Part shown: one piece after another, positions 2,116 through 29,771 of the stretch
How positions within the stretch are numbered: position 1 is the stretch's first letter
Layout of the letters: the number at the start of each line of letters is the position of its first letter
From: an uncultured Bacilli bacterium
Lineage (GTDB): Bacteria; Bacillota_I; Bacilli_A; RF39; UBA660
Length of the DNA stretch: 64,000 bases
Reading direction: 5' to 3'
NCBI GenBank assembly: GCA_947628965.1
Contig: CANRBV010000002.1
Coordinates: 16,247 to 80,246, forward strand
Program-made: the position numbers and the translations under genes
The notes under the pieces: generated by a model
What the model saw: the letters and a program-made list of their open reading frames with translations, nothing else
Databases searched by the model: none
Told to the model about the DNA's origin: nothing

Positions 2116-3369
2116 CTATCTAGATACAATATAATCAATGATTTCATTTTCATCGACTTTCTCTTCTTCTTTTGTTAAATTGTCTTTTACAGTAATTAAA
2201 CCTTTCTTTAAATCTTCACTATTTAAAAGTATTAAAAGTTGCGCGTTGTTGCGGTCTGCTTCTTTAAATTGACTTTTCAAGCTTCTTCCTGTTGTATCAT
2301 AATCAACGCTTATTCCACTTAAACGAAGATCTTGGGCAAGCATTAAAGCTTTCATTTTTTCTTCTTCATTTACATATAAGATGTAGCAATCAAGTGCTCT
2401 TTTTTCTGTTTCTTCGAACTCATCCATCGCAAGCATAACTCTTTCTAGTCCGCATGCAAAACCAATACATGGAGTTGATGGACCACCTAGAGTTTCTACT
2501 AAATCGTTATAACGCCCACCAGCTGCGATGGTACTTGCTCCACCTAAAACATTGGCATCGCTTTCAATTTCAAATACGGTATAATCGTAGTAATCTAGGC
2601 CACGTACTAAATGCGAATCGATTTCATAATCAACATCTAAAAATTCTAAATATTTTAATACTTTATTAAAACGGTTTTTGGATTCTTCCGTCTGATAGTC
2701 TAAAATATTTGGTACATTTTTTAAAATTTCGGAATCACGATCGACTTTACAATCTAAAATCCGTAATGGGTTGGTTTCAAATCTTTTTTTACAATCGCTA
2801 CATAACTCGTTTAAGTGTGGTTTTAAATATTCTTTTAAAGCGATTTTATACTTTTCTCTATCTTCTTTAGAGCCAAGGCTATTGATACGTACATTTAAAT
2901 CTTTAAACCCAAGTTCTAAAAACATGTGATAAGGCATAGAAATAACCTCGGCGTCTATAGCAGGATCATTACTCCCTAATACCTCTACACCAAATTGGGT
3001 AAATTCACGATTCCTTCCATTTCCTGGTCTTTCATAACGATACATCGTGCCATTATAATAAAGTTTTCTTGGCATATTAGAACCATACATTTTATTTTCA
3101 ATAAAGCTTCTAACGACTCCTGCTGTACCTTCTGGTCGTAGTGTTAAATCTCTTTCGCTTCTATCTTTAAAATCATACGTTTCCTTGGTTACGATATCCG
3201 TTTCTTCTCCAACCGTTCTATGAAATAATTCACGTGCTTCAAAGATTGGCGTACGAATATAATCGTAATTATAAAATTCACAAGTATACTCAATTAAGCG
3301 ATTAATCTTTTGTAATTTTAAGGCTTCCTTATCAATTACATCATATGTTCCTTTTGGTTTTGTTATCAT
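2116..3369 (-). CDS. hisS: histidine--tRNA ligase
   Basis: Class IIa HisRS motifs (RPEGTAGVVR, RYERPGNGRNREFTQFG, GGRYD). The track start at 3387 reads through the RBS; ATG at 3367-3369 is preceded by GGAGGAG 5 nt upstream. Confidence 0.9.
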   Translation of the reverse strand: MITKPKGTYDVIDKEALKLQKINRLIEYTCEFYNYDYIRTPIFEARELFHRTVGEETDIVTKETYDFKDRSERDLTLRPEGTAGVVRSFIENKMYGSNMPRKLYYNGTMYRYERPGNGRNREFTQFGVEVLGSNDPAIDAEVISMPYHMFLELGFKDLNVRINSLGSKEDREKYKIALKEYLKPHLNELCSDCKKRFETNPLRILDCKVDRDSEILKNVPNILDYQTEESKNRFNKVLKYLEFLDVDYEIDSHLVRGLDYYDYTVFEIESDANVLGGASTIAAGGRYNDLVETLGGPSTPCIGFACGLERVMLAMDEFEETEKRALDCYILYVNEEEKMKALMLAQDLRLSGISVDYDTTGRSLKSQFKEADRNNAQLLILLNSEDLKKGLITVKDNLTKEEEKVDENEIIDYIVSR

Positions 3370-19538: not shown

Positions 19539-20240
19539 TTAAGACAGAAAAAAATCAATTAAAACTGGTGCTAAAATAATAAGCAACATCATTGGAACAA
19601 AAAATAATACGGAAAGAACACTAATTTTTGTAGGAAGCTTGGAAATTTCCGCTTTGGTTTCTAGAATTTTCTTTTCTCTTAAATATTCTAATTGATTATT
19701 AATACTTGTAGCAACATTATTTCCATAAATACTTGATTCTGTTAAATTTAAAAGAATCGTATTAATAGCTTCGCTAGGAATTCTTTCTTTCATTAAAGCT
19801 AAACTTTCTGAAAAACTTTTTCCCATTTTTACATCAGAAAGCGTTTTTTTAAATTCATCGGATAATTCACTATCAATATTCTTCGTTGTAAGTTCTAATG
19901 CTCCTTTTAAGTAGGGATTGGTTTCGAGAGTTAAACTTAAAATTTCAAAGAAAAATAAAGCTTCATTTTCTAATTTCTTACAGCGCTTTTTAATTTTACT
20001 ATCGAATACTATTTGTTCACTAAAAAAGGAAAAAAGTACGACACTTACTGGGGCAAGAATAGCACCATGTTTTGTAAAAAATAGAAAGAATAGAAATAAA
20101 AGTATAGAACCAAAGAAACGAAAATTTAAAAAAGTAAATTCATCCATATTTTTATCTAGTCCTAAATAATTAGCTTTTTTATGAATCCTTTCTATCGTTT
20201 TTCTAGGATAAATATGATATGCAAAATAACTTCTTTTCAT
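19539..20240 (-). CDS. tadC: TadC-like pilus assembly platform protein (T2SSF domain)
   Basis: TM segments flank a cytoplasmic T2SSF-like domain. Last gene of the tad cluster. Confidence 0.55.
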   Translation of the reverse strand: MKRSYFAYHIYPRKTIERIHKKANYLGLDKNMDEFTFLNFRFFGSILLFLFFLFFTKHGAILAPVSVVLFSFFSEQIVFDSKIKKRCKKLENEALFFFEILSLTLETNPYLKGALELTTKNIDSELSDEFKKTLSDVKMGKSFSESLALMKERIPSEAINTILLNLTESSIYGNNVATSINNQLEYLREKKILETKAEISKLPTKISVLSVLFFVPMMLLIILAPVLIDFFLS

Positions 20241-21244
20241 TATATTTTCACCTCTAAAATCTTTTTAATGACCCATATATAAGATATATATAAAAGTAAA
20301 ATTAGTCCAAAAAGGATCCATCCAATTGGTGTTGAAAACAGAGGGTGAAAATAATTTGGATTTAAAAGAAGGATAAAAGAAACAAGAACTAAAGGTAAAA
20401 AAACTAAGATACGATATACAAATAGGCTTGAAGCAGTCAAGCTTTTTAATTCATCTCGCATTTTTTTCTTATTATAAAAAGATTTTTCAATAGTTTCAAA
20501 AACATTGGTAATATTTCCCCCAGTCTTATTTAATAAAGTTAGGGAAGAAGCAATATATTTTGCATCTTCTAGTTTTATTCTTTCATAAAATCGATTAAAA
20601 ACAACTTCTAAACTAAGCCCATAAGTCATATCTAAATAAATTTTTTTAAATTCATCTGAAATCGGTCCACTCAATTCATTTTTTACTGTTACAATGGCTT
20701 GCATAATATTTTTTCCAGATCTAAAGCTATTATTTAAAACCATTATGGCTTTCATTAAATCCTGCTCGATACTTTTCTTTTTTTTAGCAAATTGAATTTT
20801 TAAAAAAATATCAGGTAAGAAAAAACCTAAGATAAAAATAAATACTGTATAAAGAAATAGAATATGTTTTGTTTTAATAAGTGAAGTTACAATACTTAAA
20901 ATTGCACATAAGAAACCTACAAAAAATTTAATGGCTATATAATAAATAGGTTCTTTCTCATTTTTTTCCTGAAAAGAAATATATTTTTCATAGGAAAAAG
21001 CATACTTAGACAAAACCGTTGATTTTTTTAAAACTTTGCTAAATTTTTTTAAAAATATCTCTAGATGAAAAATAATTCTATCAAAGAAAGAAATGATTTG
21101 GTCTTCGTTTGTATGTAAACTAAACGCTTGAAAGCGCTTATTTAACTTAGCGTCTTGTAACCCATTATAAATGCCAAAAATAAGAAGAAAAATACCAATA
21201 AAACTTGCAAACAAAAGCAATAAAATAGGTATAGATATGCGCAT
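20240..21244 (-). CDS. tadB: TadB-like pilus assembly platform protein (T2SSF domain)
   Basis: 334-aa polytopic protein with a T2SSF-like C-terminal part; its ATG overlaps the tadC stop. Confidence 0.55.
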   Translation of the reverse strand: MRISIPILLLLFASFIGIFLLIFGIYNGLQDAKLNKRFQAFSLHTNEDQIISFFDRIIFHLEIFLKKFSKVLKKSTVLSKYAFSYEKYISFQEKNEKEPIYYIAIKFFVGFLCAILSIVTSLIKTKHILFLYTVFIFILGFFLPDIFLKIQFAKKKKSIEQDLMKAIMVLNNSFRSGKNIMQAIVTVKNELSGPISDEFKKIYLDMTYGLSLEVVFNRFYERIKLEDAKYIASSLTLLNKTGGNITNVFETIEKSFYNKKKMRDELKSLTASSLFVYRILVFLPLVLVSFILLLNPNYFHPLFSTPIGWILFGLILLLYISYIWVIKKILEVKI

Positions 21245-21268
21245 AAAATCACTCCTTTCCTTTTATTT

Positions 21269-22615
21269 TTATTCTTCATTTTTTTTAAATATATCTTCTA
21301 AATCGTAAATACCGCGCGAAAGTATTTTTTTATATACTTTTGGAATATAATCATTTAATATAAATTCCCCATCTACTTCACCACTTTCAGTTACCCCTAT
21401 TTGTTTAAAACTAAATATTTCTTTTAATTTAATTCTTTCTTCTTCAAAGCCTACAATTTCTGAAATGGAAGTAATTTTTCTTTTTCCATCGTTCATTCTT
21501 TCAATGTTTACAACAATATCAATGGCACTTGTTATATATTCTCGAATTGCTTTAATAGGAATATCTAAGCCACTCATTAAAACCATTGTTTCTAAACGAT
21601 TTAGGGCATCATGAACACCATTGGCATGCAAAGTAGTTAACGATCCATCGTGACCAGTATTCATTGCTTGTAACATGTCAAATGCTTCTTTACCACGAAC
21701 TTCTCCAACAATTATACGATCAGGTCGCATACGAAGCGAATTTTTAACTAAATCGCGTATAGTAATTTCTCCATCCTTATCATAATTTGTTACTCTTGTT
21801 TCCAAAGAAATAACATTTTTTTGATGTAAACGTAATTCAGCAGCATCCTCTATTGTTATAATTCTTTCTTGTGAGTTAATAAAACCGCTTAAAATATTAA
21901 GTAGAGTTGTTTTCCCACTCCCTGTTCCTCCACAAACAATAATATTCAGTTTCCCTTTTACTGCAGCTTCTAAAAATCTTGCCATATAGGGAGTAAGGGT
22001 ACCTATGCGAATTAAATCTTCAATACTAACCATCGTTTCTTTAAATTTACGAATTGTAATTACAGGTCCTTTCGTAGAAAGTGGTGGAATAACAGCATTT
22101 ATTCTAGAACCATCTAAAAGCCTAGAATCTACCATAGGATTTGCTGCATCGATAGTTCTACCAAGAGGTTCAATTAAACGCTCTATCGTTCTAATTATAT
22201 GTTCATCATTTATAAATGAAACGCTTTCATCTTTAATCAAACGACCATCAATTTCAATATAAATCTCATTTGGACTATTCACCATAATTTCCGTAATATT
22301 TTTATCTTCTAATAATTCTGTAAGAGGTCCATAGCCATTGATTTCATTATCAATTAAATTAAATAAGTGACTTCTTTCTAAGTTAGTTAAATCTTGTCCT
22401 TCAATAGCGGACTCAATTTCTTCATTAATAAATTCATTTAATATTTTTCCTTCAGGAATTTCTTTATCAATTAAATTTTCAACAATCCTTGTTCTTAAAT
22501 CATCTAACAATTTCTTATCAGGAAAGATTTCATAATCGGTAATGCTTTCTATTTTAGGGGTTTTTCTTTCTATATTAAAAGCATCAATTAGGCTTGTTTT
22601 ACTCATGAACATCAC
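21269..22615 (-). CDS. tadA: CpaF/TadA family secretion ATPase
   Basis: Walker [17 protein letters not shown] and the conserved [12 protein letters not shown] motif. Confidence 0.85.
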
Positions 22616-23384
22616 CTACTTTTTCTTTTTTTTCATCCAACAAATCTAAAGCCATATTCATTAGAGTTTCATAATCTTTATTAAAAGTAATGGCCATTTT
22701 ATTTTGTAAAGTAATTATTTCACCATTCATAACATAATCGTCAATGTTTTTTATATAAAAATTACTGGATAGAGTATAATCAATATTAGATTTTATAATA
22801 TTTTTAATATCAAATATAGAAAAATAATCTTTATAGGGATCACGACTATTATTAAGAAGAATTTTATAGTTCGTAATATTCGAATCTTTAAAAATGCTCA
22901 TTAATGATTTCATATTTTTTAAATCGAGTGGATCATTGGATAAAATAAAGAGTATTGTATCTACTTTATCTAGTGTGGTTACATTCATTTCATTTAAAAT
23001 ATGATTCGTATCAATTAAAACAACATCATAGTTGGATTCAGCCTTATCAATTAAAATATCCATATATTTTGAATCTATTTTATTACATTGCCTAGGATCT
23101 TTTGGACAAGGCAATATGTCAATATAATCATCATATTTTGTAACATAATTTTTAAATTCTTCATAGCGATTGTTATTATAATCGTCCACAAAATTAAAAA
23201 TTGTTTTTTCAAAAGGGCGGTTGAGGGCCATACTAATTCCTCCACTAGATAAATCCAAATCAAGTATCAAAATTTTCTTTTCTAAATGTTCAAAAATTCC
23301 CGCTAAATTGGTTGTAATTATTGTTTTTCCAACTCCACCTTTGGATGAAAAAACGCACATTGATTTTCCTTTTGATTTTGACAT
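22599..23384 (-). CDS. tadZ: TadZ/CpaE-like ParA/MinD-family ATPase
   Basis: Deviant Walker A SSKGGVGKT; overlaps tadA by 17 nt. Confidence 0.65.
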   Translation of the reverse strand: MSKSKGKSMCVFSSKGGVGKTIITTNLAGIFEHLEKKILILDLDLSSGGISMALNRPFEKTIFNFVDDYNNNRYEEFKNYVTKYDDYIDILPCPKDPRQCNKIDSKYMDILIDKAESNYDVVLIDTNHILNEMNVTTLDKVDTILFILSNDPLDLKNMKSLMSIFKDSNITNYKILLNNSRDPYKDYFSIFDIKNIIKSNIDYTLSSNFYIKNIDDYVMNGEIITLQNKMAITFNKDYETLMNMALDLLDEKKEKVGDVHE

Positions 23385-23393
23385 AGTATCCCT

Positions 23394-23771
23394 CTATTCT
23401 TTTTCTATTTTTAGTTCATTATTGATATAGAATACACTTTTTATTGCATAAGATTTTATTCCTATTATGTTTCCAAATATACTCTCTTTTTCATATTGTA
23501 CCTTAATTCTTACAAAATCTTTTTTATTCTCGATTTGCAAATTGTATGTAGGTATTTCATTTTCTTCTAATAAAGAAATGATTTTATCATCAAAAGATGC
23601 ATTTTCTTTTTCTTTATACGTTGTTCTTAAAATTGTTCTTAAAGTACTATTTAATCGTGTTTTTTCATTTAAAATAGTCCCAGTATCTACTACAAAAGCT
23701 AGTAATAAAAGAAGAAGTGGCAATAATAGAATAAAGACAATCAATGTTTGTCCATGCCTATTCATTGTCAA
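23394..23771 (-). CDS. TadE/TadF-like pseudopilin
   Basis: N-terminus GQTLIVFILLLPLLLLLLAFVVDTG is a TadE-like hydrophobic segment. Confidence 0.5.
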   Translation of the reverse strand: MTMNRHGQTLIVFILLLPLLLLLLAFVVDTGTILNEKTRLNSTLRTILRTTYKEKENASFDDKIISLLEENEIPTYNLQIENKKDFVRIKVQYEKESIFGNIIGIKSYAIKSVFYINNELKIEKE

Positions 23772-24111
23772 TCACTCTTTTTGCTGTTGCAACATATGGA
23801 TTTTTTAAAATCATATTTAATCCAGGTGTTATTACAGCAATTTCTTTTTTTAAAAATAAAGTTTCGTTTGTTTCATCTTTTGTTATTTCAAGGAATATAT
23901 GATCATGAGTAAGATCTAATTTCTTATCAATTTCCTCTAATGTATTCTCATTTTTGTATTCTGTAATGACATCATCCATTTTACTTTCTAAATTGTTCTT
24001 CACATATAATATTTTTCCAAAATCTAACATACTAAACAACATAAAAATAAAGACGGGTAAAAGAATGACAAACTCAACTAATGCTTGTCCATTACGTTTT
24101 GCTAACAACAT
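23758..24111 (-). CDS. TadE-like pseudopilin
   Basis: Internal ATG at 24109-24111 with GAAGGGG RBS gives MLLAKRNGQALVEFVILLPVFIFMLF, a TadE N-terminal motif. The track ORF extends upstream through the RBS. Confidence 0.5.
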   Translation of the reverse strand: MLLAKRNGQALVEFVILLPVFIFMLFSMLDFGKILYVKNNLESKMDDVITEYKNENTLEEIDKKLDLTHDHIFLEITKDETNETLFLKKEIAVITPGLNMILKNPYVATAKRVIDNE

Positions 24112-24172
24112 ATCACTACCCCTTCTATTATCGTTTTTTATTATAACATAAAAAAAACGCAAAGAAAAGTCT

Positions 24173-24376
24173 TTACGTATTTTTTTCTTGGCAAGTTCCT
24201 TCACCTGGTTTATTACCAGAAACATATTCTTGATCGACTAAAGAGCAGGAAGTTTTTGTTATAGAATCTTTTAAATAACCTCCAAAATAGCTAACTAAAG
24301 AAACGATTATGACACTAATAAGTGCAATAATTAGAACGTATTCAACTAACGTTTGTCCCTTATTATTTTTTAGCAT
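24173..24376 (-). CDS. flp: Flp-family type IVb prepilin
   Basis: ATG at 24374-24376 with AGGTGG RBS gives MLKNNKGQTLVEYVLIIALISVIIVSL... The class III leader G/QTLVEY fits the Flp prepilin motif; 67 aa. Confidence 0.7.
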   Translation of the reverse strand: MLKNNKGQTLVEYVLIIALISVIIVSLVSYFGGYLKDSITKTSCSLVDQEYVSGNKPGEGTCQEKNT

Positions 24377-24398
24377 TTTACCACCTACTCTTACCATA

Positions 24399-24427
24399 AA
24401 TATATAAGAAAAAAGAGGTAAAGTCAA
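24399..24427 (-). promoter_or_regulatory. putative promoter for flp (TTGACT-17-TATATT)
   Basis: Minus-strand hexamers with a 17-nt spacer, 25 nt upstream of the flp RBS. Confidence 0.35.
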
Positions 24428-24437
24428 ATCTTTTATA

Positions 24438-26057
24438 TTATTTTAAAATTCTTTTTCTCACCATTGAATCAGTATCTTCTACAAATAATTTAGAGTATTC
24501 ATCTCTATTTTCAATAATGTTTTCATATTTTTGGGCTTGTAATAATGTAATTAAATAATTCAAAGTATCCCTTTCTGTATTTCTTTCTTCTTTCTTTGCG
24601 CGTAAATATTGAATTGCTTGCTTTAATTTTTCTCTATTTGCACCTTCAATATTTTCAGCAAATTTATATAAATATTCAGCATTTTTGGTTTGAATAATAG
24701 CATCCTCTAATTTTTCTATATTTGCTCTTTTAATATCTTTGGCAAAATAATAAATATATTCAGCATTTTTGGTTTGAATAAGTGCATCTTCCAATTTTTC
24801 TATATTTGCTCTTTTAATATCTTTGGCAAAAGAATAAATATATTCAGCATTTTTGGTTTGAATGATAGCATTCTCTAATTTTTCAATATTTGCTCCTTTG
24901 ATATATCTAGCAAATTTATAAATATATTCAGCATTTTGAGTTTGAATAAGTGCATTTTCTAATTTTTCAATGTTTGCTCTTTTAATATCATTGGCAAAAT
25001 AATAAATATATTCAGCATTTTGAGTTTGAATAAGTGCATCTTCTAATTTTTCAATGTTTGCTCTTTTAATATCATTGGCAAAATAATAAATATATTCAGC
25101 ATTTTGAGTTTGAATAAGTGCATCTTCTAATTTTTTAATATTTGCTCTTTTAATATCTTTGACAAAATAATAAATATAATAAGCATCTTTAATTTGAATA
25201 AGTGCATCTTCTAATTTTTTTCTATTTGCTCTTTTAATATCTTTGGCAAATAAATAAATATAATTAGCCTTTTTGGTTTGAATAAGTGCATTTTCTAATT
25301 TATTTATATTTGCTCCTTTGACATTGCTAGCAAATTTATAAATATATTCAGCATTTTGAGTTTGAATAAGTGCACCTTCAATATTTTCAGTAAATTTATT
25401 CATATATTCAACATTTTGAGTTTGAATGAGCGCATTCTCTAATTTTTCAATATTCGCTCCTTTATTATCTCTAGCAAATTTATAAATATAATAAGCATCA
25501 TGAATTTGAATTATGGCGTCTTCTAATTTTTCTATATTTGCTTCTTTGACATTGCTAGCAAAAGAATAAATATATTCAGCATCATGAATTTGAATTATGG
25601 CGTCTTCTAATTTTTCTATATTTGCTCTTTTAATATCTTTGGCAAATAAATAAATATAATTAGCCTTTTTGGTTTGAATAAGTGCATCTTCCAATTTTTC
25701 AATGTTTGCTTCTTTGACATCGCTAGCAAAAGAATAAATATATTCAGCATTTTTGGTTTGAATAAGTGCATTTTCTAATTTATTTATATTTGCCTCTTTG
25801 ACATCTCTAGCAAAATAATAAATATATTTGGCATTTTCAGTTTGAATTATAGCATCTTCTAATTTTTTTACATTCGCGCCTTCAATATTTTTAGCAAATT
25901 TATAAATATATTCAGCATTCTTAATATCAATAACAGTATTACAACCTAATTCTTTGTCAATAATTCCTAGATTTACTAATTTTATAAAATAACGAAAGTC
26001 CTTTGCCATTATCATTTGTACATTTGAATTCATACTAAAACCTCCTATAATAATCAT
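24438..26057 (-). CDS. tandem-repeat protein: about 16 copies of a 28-aa repeat NAEYIYxFAxDIKxANIEKLEDALIQTx
   Basis: 539-aa ORF with no signal peptide. The repeats are near-identical at DNA level (84-bp period), with a unique N-terminal 45 aa and C-terminal about 60 aa. Confidence 0.7.
   Translation of the reverse strand: MIIIGGFSMNSNVQMIMAKDFRYFIKLVNLGIIDKELGCNTVIDIKNAEYIYKFAKNIEGANVKKLEDAIIQTENAKYIYYFARDVKEANINKLENALIQTKNAEYIYSFASDVKEANIEKLEDALIQTKKANYIYLFAKDIKRANIEKLEDAIIQIHDAEYIYSFASNVKEANIEKLEDAIIQIHDAYYIYKFARDNKGANIEKLENALIQTQNVEYMNKFTENIEGALIQTQNAEYIYKFASNVKGANINKLENALIQTKKANYIYLFAKDIKRANRKKLEDALIQIKDAYYIYYFVKDIKRANIKKLEDALIQTQNAEYIYYFANDIKRANIEKLEDALIQTQNAEYIYYFANDIKRANIEKLENALIQTQNAEYIYKFARYIKGANIEKLENAIIQTKNAEYIYSFAKDIKRANIEKLEDALIQTKNAEYIYYFAKDIKRANIEKLEDAIIQTKNAEYLYKFAENIEGANREKLKQAIQYLRAKKEERNTERDTLNYLITLLQAQKYENIIENRDEYSKLFVEDTDSMVRKRILK
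24590..25920. repeat. 84-bp in-frame tandem DNA repeats (about 16 units, several adjacent units at least 98% identical)
   Basis: For example, 24962-25045 and 25046-25129 differ by 1 nt. The period equals 28 codons. Confidence 0.8.
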
Positions 26058-26108
26058 TTGTCCTAGTTTTTCTAGTTTTTTATAAATTTTTCTTTTTGAT
26101 TGATAGTT

Positions 26109-26137
26109 ATTGTAGCATACTTTTAAAAGTTTAACAA
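26109..26137 (-). promoter_or_regulatory. putative promoter for the repeat-protein gene (TTGTTA-17-TACAAT)
   Basis: Minus-strand hexamers with a 17-nt spacer, upstream of the 26057 start. Confidence 0.3.
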
Positions 26138-26156
26138 CGAAAAAAAATTAGTTGTA

Positions 26157-27278
26157 CTAATCCTTATAAACACTATCAATACCAAAATATTCTTCTAGAG
26201 TTAACCAATCTCCATTGTTATAAAGTTTTGTTGCCAATTCTTCCCCAACATAACGAAAATGCCATGCTTCATATTTAAAACCCGTAACGTCTTGTTTTCC
26301 TTTTGGATATCTTAAAATAAAACCATACTTATAGCAATTCTCACTTAACCAATTGGCTTCTGGTGTTCCAATAAATTTATCACTAACTTCGTTTACATCG
26401 AAGGTTAAACCAGATTGATGTTCTGAGTAGCCTGGCCTTGCAGAATAGGTATCCGCCGCTTCTTTACCATCTCTTTTCACATAGTTATCATACAAAGTTA
26501 CTTGTCGATCGTAAGATCTAAATCCACTTGCAATATAAATATTTAAGCCATCTAATAAAGCAGCAGATTGCATTTTTTTAAATGCTGTATTTGTATCATT
26601 AGTAAGACCATTTCCAAAGTTAGAAGGTAGTCCATAACTTTTATTTACAATTAATGTTCCATCAATATAGGTAGCACCATCTCTTACGACACCTTGAAAT
26701 CCTTTAGAAGTCGTAAAATAAGTTTCATTACTAGAAGAACCTAATACTTTTAATGTAAATTCTTCTTTTTTTTCATTTCCACTACTATCTTTAGCAACAT
26801 AATAAAGTCTATATTCTCCTATTTCATTGAAATTATATTCACCTTCTACATAAACTGTTATATTCTCTCTAGAATTATCAGTAGCTAAAACATTTTTTAA
26901 TAAATCTATTTCTTTTCCTTTTTCTGTTGTAAGTGTATTTTGATAGGTAATCACAGGAGATTCTTTATCTACAACTTTGAAAGTAACGTTATAAGTCTTT
27001 TGTAGACCAAAAAAAGTTTTAAAAATTACTACAACTTTCTTTTTACCTACGGTAGAAGTATCTAACATCTCGTCTTTATTTAAAATTTCTCCATTATGTA
27101 CTTGTTTAACAATCTCTTCAATCGTTTTTTCTTCATTTAAAGAAAGAAAAATCTCTTTATTTATAAATAATTTAGAACTATTCCATATTACGAAAACTAC
27201 TATTACAAATAAAAATAAAAATAATAAAATTTTAACTCCCTTTTTTATTCTTCTTTTTTTGTGTTTCATCTTAAACAT
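26157..27278 (-). CDS. VanY-family D-alanyl-D-alanine carboxypeptidase (M15B), membrane-anchored
   Basis: N-terminal TM; catalytic motifs SGFRSYDRQ, SEHQSGLTFDV and EAWHFRYVG. Confidence 0.8.
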   Translation of the reverse strand: MFKMKHKKRRIKKGVKILLFLFLFVIVVFVIWNSSKLFINKEIFLSLNEEKTIEEIVKQVHNGEILNKDEMLDTSTVGKKKVVVIFKTFFGLQKTYNVTFKVVDKESPVITYQNTLTTEKGKEIDLLKNVLATDNSRENITVYVEGEYNFNEIGEYRLYYVAKDSSGNEKKEEFTLKVLGSSSNETYFTTSKGFQGVVRDGATYIDGTLIVNKSYGLPSNFGNGLTNDTNTAFKKMQSAALLDGLNIYIASGFRSYDRQVTLYDNYVKRDGKEAADTYSARPGYSEHQSGLTFDVNEVSDKFIGTPEANWLSENCYKYGFILRYPKGKQDVTGFKYEAWHFRYVGEELATKLYNNGDWLTLEEYFGIDSVYKD

Positions 27279-27368
27279 TACCTCAACTTAATTTCATTAT
27301 AATGCACATTTTTTAAAAATTCTATCTCTTTAGAACAAATTTGACAGTTTTGTGATATGATGTATTAG

Positions 27369-27701
27369 GTGATACTTTTGAAATTACAATTAGAAGAAAA
27401 TACGTTTGAAATTAAAATAGCCACAAACTTTTCGGATCGTTTGATGGGATTTATGGGAAAAACAAATATAAATTATGGTATTTTATTTCCAAAATGCAAT
27501 AGTGTCCATACCTTTTTTATGAAAGAAGAAATTGATATTATCGGTTTAAATGAAAAAAACGAAATTTTATTTATTGAACGCAATTGTTCTAAAAATAAAA
27601 TTATTAAAATTAACTCTCCTATTAAAAAAACAAGTATTTTAGAATTACCTAAAAATACCAGTTTTTCTTTAAATATTGGAAATACCATTCATTTTATTTA
27701 A
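27369..27701 (+). CDS. DUF192-family protein
   Basis: GTG start; motifs RLMGFMG and SVHTFFM resemble DUF192/COG1430. Confidence 0.45.
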   Translation: MILLKLQLEENTFEIKIATNFSDRLMGFMGKTNINYGILFPKCNSVHTFFMKEEIDIIGLNEKNEILFIERNCSKNKIIKINSPIKKTSILELPKNTSFSLNIGNTIHFI

Positions 27702-27982
27702 CCATAAACTCTTTTTAAATAATATTCTTGATTCTCAATAACAAGTAAAAGAAATTCTTTTTCATTTAATCGTAGGAAGGCTTCTTTATTTAAATTTGGC
27801 ATAATTTCAAAATAAAGTGGAACTTGTGACATTAAAATTTCTTCTTTTATATACAAACAATCTCCTACATTAGGTTTATTTTTAAGACCATAAAAATCCA
27901 TATTTAAAGCATGCATTTCATTATCAATATCGCGAAGGGTATAGTTGTAATCTTCTATCTTTTCTATCACACATTTTATCAT
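27698..27982 (-). CDS. hypothetical protein (94 aa)
   Basis: ORF coupled (4-nt overlap) to the upstream LRR gene. Confidence 0.4.
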   Translation of the reverse strand: MIKCVIEKIEDYNYTLRDIDNEMHALNMDFYGLKNKPNVGDCLYIKEEILMSQVPLYFEIMPNLNKEAFLRLNEKEFLLLVIENQEYYLKRVYG

Positions 27983-29163
27983 CTTTTTCTTTCCTCCGAT
28001 TCCACCATTTCTATTTTTCCTAAATATTCAGGATGTTGTTGAATAAGCATTTCATAAACTTGTTCATTATTTGGTATACGAATTTTTAATAGACTATGAT
28101 TATTTGCCATAAAATCATATCCAAATAGTTTCAGATTTTCTAAATTCAAATCTATTACTGAATTATTCCAAAATAAAAAATAATCTCCTATTACTTGAAC
28201 ATTTGGTAAATTTACTTTTGATAATACATTGTTTACAAACAATAAATAATTTCCTATCTTTTGAACATTTGGTAAATTAAGAGAAGTTAATGAATTATTT
28301 CTTCCTAAAAAACTATCTCCTATTTTTTGCACATTTGGCAAATTAAGAGAAGTTAAAGAAGTATTTCCTTCTAAAAAATTATCTCCTATTTTTTGCACAT
28401 TTGGCAAATTAAGAGAAGTTAAAGAAGTATTAAAACGTAAAAAACTATCTCCTATTACTTGAACATTTGGTAAATATAACTCTAGTAATTTAGAATTATC
28501 ATATAAAAAAGCATTTCTTATTTTTTGCACATTTGGCAAATTAAGAGAAGTTAAAGAAGTATTAAAAAGTAAAAAATTATCTCCTATTACTTGAACATTT
28601 GGTAAATATAACTCTAGTAATTTAGAATTATCATATAAAAAAGCATTTCCTATTTTTTGAACATTTGGTAAATTTAGTGTTGATAATATAATGTTGTCAC
28701 ATAAAAAATTATCTCCTATTTCTTCTACATAAGGATTATCAAGACCAATTATCCTATTTTCATTATCTACTTCTAATGTTACTAAGCCTTTCATTGTTTC
28801 AAATTTAATAATTTTGCTGTTTGTTTTCACTTCTACACTAATTTTTTTGATAGGATTGTCTTGAAACATTTTCGTAAAACTATCCTCATTATTTGTACAA
28901 TTAAAAATTGTTTTTTCCTTCATATCAATGATAAAATAATCTGCTAGAATATAATGATCTTTTGGTAATTTGCTTGGCTCATGTTGTTTTAAGACTATAT
29001 TATTTGGACAATAATAGGTATTATCTATTTCATAATTGTATTTATAGTATTTACCATTACTATCTTGTACATAGTGTGGTATTTCAAATTGATTTATAAA
29101 ACTTTGTTCTAAACCATAATGTTCGGCAAAACTTTCTGTTAAGCCTTCTATAATATTATCCAA
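27979..29163 (-). CDS. leucine-rich repeat protein (BspA-like 22-aa LRR units LPNVQKIGDNFLxxNTSLTSLN)
   Basis: At least 8 consecutive 22-aa LRR repeats; TTG start; no signal peptide in this ORF. The upstream frame stays open, as described in the findings. Confidence 0.65.
   Translation of the reverse strand: MDNIIEGLTESFAEHYGLEQSFINQFEIPHYVQDSNGKYYKYNYEIDNTYYCPNNIVLKQHEPSKLPKDHYILADYFIIDMKEKTIFNCTNNEDSFTKMFQDNPIKKISVEVKTNSKIIKFETMKGLVTLEVDNENRIIGLDNPYVEEIGDNFLCDNIILSTLNLPNVQKIGNAFLYDNSKLLELYLPNVQVIGDNFLLFNTSLTSLNLPNVQKIRNAFLYDNSKLLELYLPNVQVIGDSFLRFNTSLTSLNLPNVQKIGDNFLEGNTSLTSLNLPNVQKIGDSFLGRNNSLTSLNLPNVQKIGNYLLFVNNVLSKVNLPNVQVIGDYFLFWNNSVIDLNLENLKLFGYDFMANNHSLLKIRIPNNEQVYEMLIQQHPEYLGKIEMVESEERKR
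28173..28713. repeat. 66-bp in-frame tandem repeats encoding the LRR units
   Basis: Repeated LPNVQ(K/V)IG blocks are visible at DNA level. Confidence 0.7.
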
Positions 29164-29336
29164 GTTATTGGAAAAAGTAGCATCGCATTGATCAACCGTA
29201 TGATTATATCGATTTTTAATGGATAAAATATGATAGGGATTACGATCGAATTGAATACTAATAACACTTGTTCCATATAAATCTTGTCTTTCTGGATTTT
29301 TAAAATCTTCTCGTTTAATAGCCTCTACATTTTTCT

Positions 29337-29771
29337 TTACTGCAAAGAAAACATGACATTTTTTAAACGTCCACCTCTAAATGTACAAAGTTCTTCTCTT
29401 GGAGCATAATATTTTTTAAAACTTTGAATCTCTTCTTCACTTTTACATTCATATAAATTGTAACCAGCTTCACTTAACAATTCTTGTGGTGTTTTTATAT
29501 TAGAATTTGTTTGTTCCTCGCTTCTTTTATCAAATTGTTTATAGATAAAATCTTTAAAAGCCATTTCCAAATCCTCTTTTTGCAAATCTTTATATAAAAA
29601 TTTAGAAGGTTCAAACCACTTTAATAACAAATTGGTTAAAACACCCTCTTGTTCTAAAATTGTTGAAAAAGCATCACGACAAAAGTGAGCCATTTCTTCC
29701 CCGTACTTTTTCTTGATAATTTTTAAATCAGAATTCATAGCTTCACCTCGTTTTTTACTCTTTAAATTCAA
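29337..29771 (-). CDS. hypothetical protein; possibly the 5' part of a frameshifted gene continuing into the LRR ORF
   Basis: 144-aa ORF. The +1 frame is open from 29376 down to the LRR TTG start. A T6/A6 tract at 29361-29366 is a candidate slip site. Confidence 0.4.
   Translation of the reverse strand: MNLKSKKRGEAMNSDLKIIKKKYGEEMAHFCRDAFSTILEQEGVLTNLLLKWFEPSKFLYKDLQKEDLEMAFKDFIYKQFDKRSEEQTNSNIKTPQELLSEAGYNLYECKSEEEIQSFKKYYAPREELCTFRGGRLKNVMFSLQ

Follow-up and report, generated by a model that had tools for sequence, protein, structure and literature searches.

A predicted HEAT-like solenoid protein of 28-residue tandem repeats encoded upstream of a Tad pilus locus in an uncultured Bacilli bacterium

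We analyzed a 64,000-nucleotide stretch of DNA from an uncultured Bacilli bacterium (contig CANRBV010000002.1 of assembly GCA_947628965.1; hereafter the window, with positions counted from its first letter), in which a minus-strand gene built of 84-bp tandem repeats lies directly upstream of a Tad pilus locus. Its product consists almost entirely of sixteen 28-residue units, for which a two-helix solenoid fold is predicted, and represents a new sequence family within a well-known structural kind. An initial annotation of the window had described about sixteen such units, one of them truncated, and had proposed a pilus-associated scaffold or regulator. The architecture was confirmed, and the link with the pilus was lost once relatives of the gene were compared.

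The repeat gene and its array

The longest version of the open reading frame (ORF), as given in the program-made ORF list, occupies 24438..26057 on the minus strand, begins with an ATG at 26057 and encodes 539 amino acids (aa). The true start is most likely not this codon and is instead the ATG at 26033, because a Shine-Dalgarno sequence lies 7 nt upstream of the latter and orthologues begin there; the N-termini of orthologue-like proteins (MNDNIKFLMNNNF, MNKNIEKILHQNF and MNANIKLLLKEDF) align with that of the window protein (MNSNVQMIMAKDF). Here and below, orthologue-like denotes proteins that have in common with the window protein the N-terminal cap (F..F.KLV.LGIIDKE), the C-terminal tail (..YE.II.N...Y..LF..) or both. 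The product would then have 531 aa, and the gene and its parts are the following.

24438..26033, minus strand: coding sequence of the repeat protein from the preferred start, 531 aa plus stop, ATG at 26033, orthologue N-termini aligning
26041..26046, minus strand: Shine-Dalgarno sequence AGGAGG, read from the sequence
26109..26137, minus strand: promoter-like TTGTTA-17-TACAAT with TG before the -10 element, 9 of 12 matches, a consensus match only
25920..26033, minus strand: N-terminal cap, aa 1-38 of 531, a degenerate repeat-like helical pair
25416..25919, minus strand: repeat block 1, units 1-6 (6 x 84 bp, 6 x 28 aa), from the register parse and Tandem Repeats Finder (TRF)
25356..25415, minus strand: truncated unit 7, 20 aa, NVEYMNKFTENIEGALIQTQ, lacking the 8 residues ANIEKLED/N
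24600..25355, minus strand: repeat block 2, units 8-16 (9 x 84 bp), unit 16 being a degenerate C-terminal cap
24936..25271, minus strand: units 9-12, a recently duplicated or homogenised block with a pairwise synonymous divergence (dS) of 0-0.10
24441..24599, minus strand: C-terminal tail, 53 aa, a long helix followed by short helices

TRF resolved the array into two tracts of period 84, at 24624-25388 (9.1 copies, 86% matches, score 1017) and at 25402-25919 (6.2 copies), and also reported higher-order periods of 168, 252 and 480 bp. Within the window, a score of at least 200 was reached only by this array and by a 66-bp leucine-rich repeat (LRR) array at 28155-28721. Read in register, the gene comprises 15 full 28-aa units and one 20-aa unit (unit 7), which makes sixteen and agrees with the count and the single truncation first described. 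The N-cap motif, F..FIKLVNLGIIDKE, is common to orthologues, and a phmmer search with the N-terminus matched P0023, P0188, P0022, P0152, P0074, P0142, P0140 and others; the C-tail motif, ..L..LL....YE.II.N...Y..LF.., was found to be common to orthologue-like proteins both in their sequences and by phmmer with the C-terminus.

The gene is single-copy within the window and its GC content is that of its neighbours; a horizontal-transfer island was considered and rejected, GC content being uniform. The promoter claimed initially, TTGTTA-17-TACAAT, is indeed present at 26137-26109 on the minus strand. Such sites are not enriched over shuffled sequence, however, with 37 observed in this AT-rich region against 47.9 expected.

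The units had been called nearly identical, which overstates their likeness. Pairwise DNA identity between units averages 80% (range 50-83 of 84 positions), amino-acid identity ranges from 10 to 27 of 28 residues, and the between-unit medians are 0.49 for dS, 0.17 for the nonsynonymous divergence (dN) and 0.33 for dN/dS. Units 11 and 12 form the most similar pair, with 83 of 84 positions identical (25020-25103 versus 24936-25019); the 83/84 pair claimed earlier at 24962-25045 and 25046-25129 is the same pair in another register. The longest exact internal repeat measures 95 bp and starts at 24957 and 25041. Signs of recent duplication or homogenisation are confined to units 9-12 and, less clearly, units 14-15; most units show a dS of 0.3-1.0. 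By these estimates the array is mostly old and under purifying selection, with one young block, so that the recent or ongoing expansion proposed at first applies to units 9-12 and not to the array as a whole.

Predicted fold and protein family

AlphaFold2 (AF2), run on an 86-sequence alignment, gave a model of the full protein with a mean predicted local distance difference test (pLDDT) score of 89.6 and a predicted template modelling score (pTM) of 0.71. Each unit is modelled as a 10-residue helix, a 5-residue turn, a second 10-residue helix and a 2-3-residue turn. Confidence is very high over units 1-5 (pLDDT 93-98) and drops over unit 6, beside the break; aa 191-230, around truncated unit 7, are the one part of the array modelled with low confidence (pLDDT 53-58), and a long helix spans 216-245. 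The truncated unit is thus predicted to separate two solenoid blocks as a hinge or break. A second model, restricted to units 8-16 and the tail, reached a pLDDT of 93.6 and a pTM of 0.81 and again showed helix(10)-turn-helix(10) in each unit. The N-terminal cap is modelled as helices H9-19, H21-29 and H35-45 (539-aa numbering), and the tail contains a long helix, H475-507 in the full model and H241-273 in the partial one. Both models therefore uphold the helical solenoid envisaged in the initial annotation.

With two antiparallel helices per unit stacked into an alpha-solenoid, the prediction agrees at the level of the fold with HEAT and HEAT-like proteins, the nearest known kind with a name (the PP2A A subunit and symplekin; the PBS-lyase-type CpcE/CpcF and Escherichia coli YibA). 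The HEAT sequence profiles (PF02985, PF13646, PF03130 and relatives) gave no match at E<=0.1 with the protein or at E<=10 with the consensus block, and a profile search of the PDB returned nothing at E<0.8. As modelled, then, the protein is a generic HEAT-like two-helix alpha-solenoid without a close structural twin. TPR and Sel1 proteins are likewise two-helix repeats that form solenoids, and both are common bacterial protein-interaction modules, yet the period of 28 aa (84 bp) differs from the 34-residue unit of the Pfam TPR clan and from the 36-44 residues of Sel1-like repeats (PF08238), and neither was matched. The Sel1 protein 6ok3 was found by Foldseek at E 1e-4, which with a TM-score of 0.17-0.19 is a generic link at fold level only. 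Ankyrin repeats differ in their 33-residue unit with a beta-hairpin/long loop, the present prediction being all-helical with turns of 2-5 residues and a period of 28, and no ankyrin family of Pfam was matched. The de novo designed DHR and THR repeat proteins are artificial and have no evolutionary relationship to the window protein, which also differs from them in its caps, its truncated unit (the predicted hinge) and the conservation of its C-terminal tail.

Hydropathy analysis revealed no transmembrane segment and, as stated at the outset, no signal peptide (maximum Kyte-Doolittle(19) value 1.05; grand average of hydropathy -0.53). The protein lacks proline and tryptophan and has a pI of 8.0, with 83 lysine and arginine residues against 81 aspartate and glutamate residues. 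Because there is no hydrophobic segment or signal peptide and the charge is nearly balanced, it should be a soluble cytoplasmic protein. Among the units of the wider family, entropy is highest at positions 7, 18, 10, 26, 28, 3 and 11, which on the model would form i/i+4/i+7 stripes on the exposed faces of both helices.

Searches for relatives retrieved 351 proteins at E<=1e-3 in a word-indexed search (scored candidates of a 90%-identity collection), none of them with a functional name, and an exhaustive search retrieved 1,331 clusters at 50% identity with E<=1e-3, including 726 with E<=1e-10. The family consensus is [ND]A[EK]YIYxFA[RK][DN][IV]KGANIxKLEDAIIxTx, and the source names present were 'Firmicutes bacterium', 'uncultured Bacilli bacterium' and 'Mycoplasma sp. 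CAG:776'. No repeat family emerged when the protein, a 4-unit consensus and about 20 relatives were scanned against Pfam and NCBIfam, which yielded only summed sub-threshold scores with 0 matched stretches; the scores for DUF1184, NCH2, OHA, YerC/YecD and others were rejected as noise of this type. Literature searches for a published solenoid family of this period and for PcfJ were likewise uninformative, 'PcfJ' matching names of C. elegans plasmids. The 4-unit consensus matched no TPR, Sel1, HEAT, ANK or PPR profile at E<=10, in keeping with the earlier remark that the 28-residue period fits none of TPR, ANK, Sel1 and PPR. Sequence searches of the PDB with the single protein and with a 40-sequence, 4-unit profile gave nothing significant, the best match being a TrpR-like YerC protein at E 0.83, which was discarded. 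Judged by these searches, the window protein belongs to a sizeable family of about 1,300 clusters from low-GC gut bacteria that is nameless in Pfam, NCBIfam, PADLOC, PHROGs and the PDB.

Array length varies among orthologue-like sequences. Those with the N-cap, the C-tail or both contain 4-16 units: P0142 has 4 units in 191 aa, P0139, P0140 and a protein from an uncultured Bacilli metagenome-assembled genome (MAG; locus L002) have 5-6 units in 237-266 aa, and P0023 and P0052 measure 361 and 457 aa, respectively. With a hidden Markov model of the unit, the 120 best relatives were each found to have 4-13 units; the window protein, with 16, has the most. Spacings of 28 residues dominate among homologues (567 spacings), and spacings of 31 and 33 were also seen. 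Units share 65% amino-acid identity within the window protein and a median of 41% within a typical member, compared with 37% between proteins; this higher identity within proteins agrees with some concerted evolution.

Several further features of the wider family were observed. In P0107, P0141 and P0221, 28-residue repeats are fused to a PcfJ-like domain (PF14284, E 1e-10 to 1e-12; phrog_3169). Paralogues occur in tandem clusters at L029 2714-10413 (four in a row), L004 4332-7314 (two) and L014 6001-8756 (two), and repeat units are found in more than one gene at L006 2685-8325. The clustered paralogues, in runs of up to four genes, measure 496-678 aa and have a different but conserved C-terminal domain (..INEIRLRIYFDYLNN..EEYIRYVSMFYGEK..). 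A gene for a collagen-like protein follows the cluster in L029 and also lies two genes upstream in L002. At L003 9833-10954, a repeat variant has a unit of about 31-32 residues (KDAYYIYYFACDVKNLTEGNINDLTKAICET), lengthened in the turn between the two helices, so that the wider family does not keep to a single period. This contig (CAYOWI010000002.1) was deposited as an 'uncultured Muribaculaceae' MAG and may be mis-binned; besides genes for an Flp pilin and a sortase-like protein, it carries an AT-rich member of the repeat family close to those of Bacilli-type genomes.

Genomic neighbourhood and competing explanations

The genes downstream of the repeat gene constitute a genuine monoderm-type Tad locus, as the initial annotation had recognised, according to a Pfam scan and, for T2SSE and T2SSF, the precomputed Pfam annotation of a 100%-identical contig.

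19539-24376, minus strand: Tad locus, with flp, tadE-like, tadE/G-like, tadZ-like, tadA, tadB and tadC genes
24173..24376, minus strand: flp (PF04964)
24427-24399, minus strand: promoter-like TTGACT-17-TATATT of flp, 10 of 12 matches

The other families matched were TadE (PF07811), Tad (PF13400), a TadZ-like ParA-type AAA_31, T2SSE and two T2SSF. The stop codon of the repeat gene is separated from the ATG of flp by 61 nt, a gap in which flp has its own ribosome-binding site (AGGTGG). A terminator-like hairpin at 24178-24157 follows flp and overlaps the long-ORF version of the next gene; it was the only one found in 21000-27500. The promoter-like site of flp and this hairpin would fit high pilin expression with attenuated read-through into tadE. 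No prepilin peptidase gene (TadV/CpaA) was seen inside the Tad locus, the part of the window searched for it, and the locus is directly followed by genes for a 532-aa RpoD-like sigma factor, RuvA and RuvB.

We compared this arrangement with 12 homologue loci of 7.7-20.8 kb each, drawn from 3 genomes (the 3 loci that a scan of a genome collection yielded), 8 exact-protein look-ups and 1 metagenome pattern scan, from which one (L029) of the 3 loci obtained in JGI metagenomes was used. All-against-all BLAST of the neighbouring genes in these loci detected no family shared outside one syntenic clade, and hence no conserved partner gene. In that clade (L001, L007, L009 and L032) the repeat gene lies between an mreC-mreD-M23-M50 cluster and rplU-ysxB-rpmA.

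Such surroundings raise the possibility of an envelope or morphogenesis adaptor that works with peptidoglycan or shape enzymes, co-expressed with mreC-mreD-M23-M50 in the relatives and with a VanY-type carboxypeptidase in the window. In L001, L007 and L032 the repeat gene starts 45-59 nt after the M50 protease gene on the same strand, in L009 a 239-aa gene intervenes, and in all four the preceding genes are dacB-like, Gate, Gate, mreC, mreD-like and M23. The window gene itself lies 99 nt after a VanY gene (PF02557, E 9e-40) on the same strand, and homologues adjoin a FemAB gene in L011 and a signal peptidase II (lspA-like) gene in L003. The four mreCD loci, however, form one syntenic clade and count as a single observation, the neighbours in other loci are unrelated (WhiA, EF-Tu, adenylosuccinate synthase and a metal ATPase), and envelope genes are common enough for these adjacencies to be due to chance. 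We regard a role of this kind as unlikely.

A different concern is the assembly itself: units may have been miscounted or joined as chimeras from short metagenomic reads, and part of the 16-unit array would then be an artefact. Contigs from several samples, reached through exact-protein look-ups of genes beside the array, carry the same flanking genes at 96-100% identity; the exact repeat protein had no entry in the collection. On the Tad side, contigs from other samples (flanks 99.6-100% identical) end at window positions 24407, 24434, 24567 and 24735, so that they stop at the array or its edge and none crosses it. The only contig that spans the array or reaches it from the other side is L025, a SPAdes NODE from the ENA with a coverage of about 9x. 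Over 13.3 kb it matches the window at 100% identity, and its overlap with the adjoining node is exactly 55 bp, so it was probably built from the same reads. Against an artefact, the reading frame is intact through all units and reads of 150 bp can span the longest exact repeat of 95 bp. Relatives with 11-13 units occur in independent data, and longer arrays occur in L029. Full units other than 11 and 12 differ at 5 or more of 84 bases, and a median dS as high as that measured here does not arise from collapse or duplication errors. Since the frame is intact and the other full units differ to this extent, at most the copy number of unit 11/12 is in doubt, and we consider even this limited error quite improbable.

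The tandem paralogue clusters (L004, L006, L014 and the four in a row of L029) and the fusions to PF14284, a domain that also matches phage families such as phrog_3169, would suit a rapidly diversifying family linked to immunity, defence or mobile elements and neutralising toxins or foreign proteins. Yet PADLOC contained 0 matching families, PHROGs gave only summed sub-threshold scores with 0 matched stretches, and tblastn found 0 matches in 50,697 phage records and one weak match among plasmids (PLSDB). Nothing was found in IMG/VR by one protein-based scan, the peptide patterns of which were mostly unique stretches, and one scan with a degenerate DNA motif for ANIEKLEDAII. The window gene is also present once in the 64 kb, with host-like GC content, housekeeping neighbours and no toxin gene adjacent to it. 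We take a role in immunity, defence or mobile elements to be very unlikely.

The proposal that had come from the window itself, a cytoplasmic scaffold or regulator that is co-transcribed with flp and organises or controls assembly of the Tad pilus, draws on the position of the repeat gene directly upstream of flp, on the same strand, with no terminator-like hairpin in the intervening gap. When the seven Tad proteins of the window were used as tblastn queries, 0 of the 12 homologue loci had Tad genes adjacent to the repeat gene. The sole match was an orphan flp in L003, about 6.5 kb and eight genes from the repeat gene, and the syntenic clade of four related genomes places the gene between the M50 protease gene and rplU. 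The promoter-like site of flp is the better of the two and is accompanied by its own ribosome-binding site, and the terminator-like hairpin comes after flp. In L003 the orphan flp directly adjoins a DUF192 gene, whereas in the window the VanY gene and the repeat gene lie between these two, which suggests that a rearrangement put them there. The DUF192 (COG1430) gene of L003 is in the 2695-3307 region beside the orphan flp, the product of which is 73% identical to the window Flp; that of the window, at 27369..27701 on the plus strand, is 3 kb from flp, and an association of DUF192 with flp is possible.

Pfam and NCBIfam gave no Tad-family match for the repeat protein, while the downstream genes were matched. 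TadD, the helical-repeat protein of diderm Tad systems, is an exported lipoprotein; unlike it, the window protein lacks a signal peptide, and the loci of its relatives show no link to Tad. As a TPR protein, TadD does show that a helical-repeat protein can serve a Tad system; it is essential for assembly of the Tad secretin, which monoderm Tad systems have lost (PMC6668835). The five conserved key functions of type IV filament systems are ATPases including TadZ, platforms, pilins, prepilin peptidases and secretins (PMC6668835), and nothing like the repeat protein is found among them, nor does it resemble TadZ or TadD. The position upstream of flp-tadE-tadE/G-tadZ-tadA-tadB-tadC looks like a lineage-specific accident of gene order, not functional coupling, and a pilus-associated role is now highly unlikely.

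A more far-reaching idea is that the family founds a natural, very short-period (28-residue) class of helical repeats, the units of which form a modular code for a periodic ligand such as an extended peptide, a cell-wall precursor polymer or a nucleic acid. The helix A stripe (positions 3, 7, 10, 11 and 14) would then set specificity, and gain or loss of units would retune the length of ligand read. This is a distant prospect; if true, it would be a bacterial counterpart of PUF/PPR/TALE logic in a new variant of the fold. Scarcely credible is a reader of a linear polymer (RNA, DNA or an extended peptide) that, as in PUF, PPR and TALE proteins, devotes one unit to each monomer and sets specificity by the variable positions: those proteins have units of 36, 35 and 34 residues with a basic nucleic-acid-binding face and share only generic structural similarity with the window protein, which matches none of their profiles, is nearly neutral and, like its family, has a conserved acidic pair in each unit.

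Among the other genes of the window, a BspA-type LRR gene contains the second tandem array (28155-28721, minus strand), of 66-bp (22-aa) units in 8.6 copies. A 144-aa ORF at 29337..29771 and the 394-aa BspA-type LRR ORF at 27979..29163 (TTG start), both on the minus strand, look like one split gene. The apparent split goes with a homopolymer that is one base shorter, T6 at 29359-29364 in the window and T7 in a 97-99% identical strain. In the T7 strain, seen in two samples, a piece of 620 bp (29075-29694) has the opposite orientation to the sequence on both sides of it, and its junctions are identical and fall within the coding sequence; the piece was compared in L019 2310-2952 and L026 1577-2197, and no obvious inverted repeats were present at the junctions. 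The inversion and the homopolymer may reflect phase or structural variation of a surface LRR protein. The LRR gene measures 204 aa in L026 (811-1425), from another sample, versus 394 aa in the window, and short-read contigs of other samples end inside the LRR array, for example L016 at window position 28620.

A candidate binding scaffold and its implications

We favour the view that the protein is a binding scaffold of the cytoplasm that stands alone and represents a new family of HEAT-like repeats, and assign this reading a probability of about 0.6. It would fold as a soluble alpha-solenoid that runs from an N-terminal cap through sixteen helix-turn-helix units of 28 residues, one of them internally deleted, to a C-terminal helix and tail. 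To judge by its fold class, it would most likely act on its own as a scaffold or adaptor that binds other proteins. The positions predicted to be buried and several surface charges are the same in every unit, and variation is concentrated in stripes on the predicted exposed faces, at positions 3, 7, 10, 11 and 14 of one helix and 18 and 26 of the other. Over evolutionary time the array length drifts as 84-bp units are gained and lost in frame, probably through unequal recombination or slippage, and purifying selection on the protein persists throughout.

Some observations weigh against this view. 'Scaffold' denotes a role assigned at the level of the fold class. The conserved surface residues K13, N16, K19, E21 and D22 could reflect a specific periodic ligand and not generic stacking, and the PcfJ-like fusions and paralogue clusters hint at a more specific biology. 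As no terminator-like hairpin separates the repeat gene from flp, transcription might run on into the pilus operon. Lastly, the count of 16 units comes from one short-read assembly.

The case is a warning against inferring function from a single gene adjacency, given that the Tad link vanishes once relatives are compared. The family lacks a model in the libraries searched and deserves to be defined; few natural two-helix solenoid repeats are as short as its 28-residue unit, the prediction of which has very high confidence. If the scaffold reading is true, the family would be attractive for repeat-protein engineering and for the study of how repeat arrays grow and shrink.

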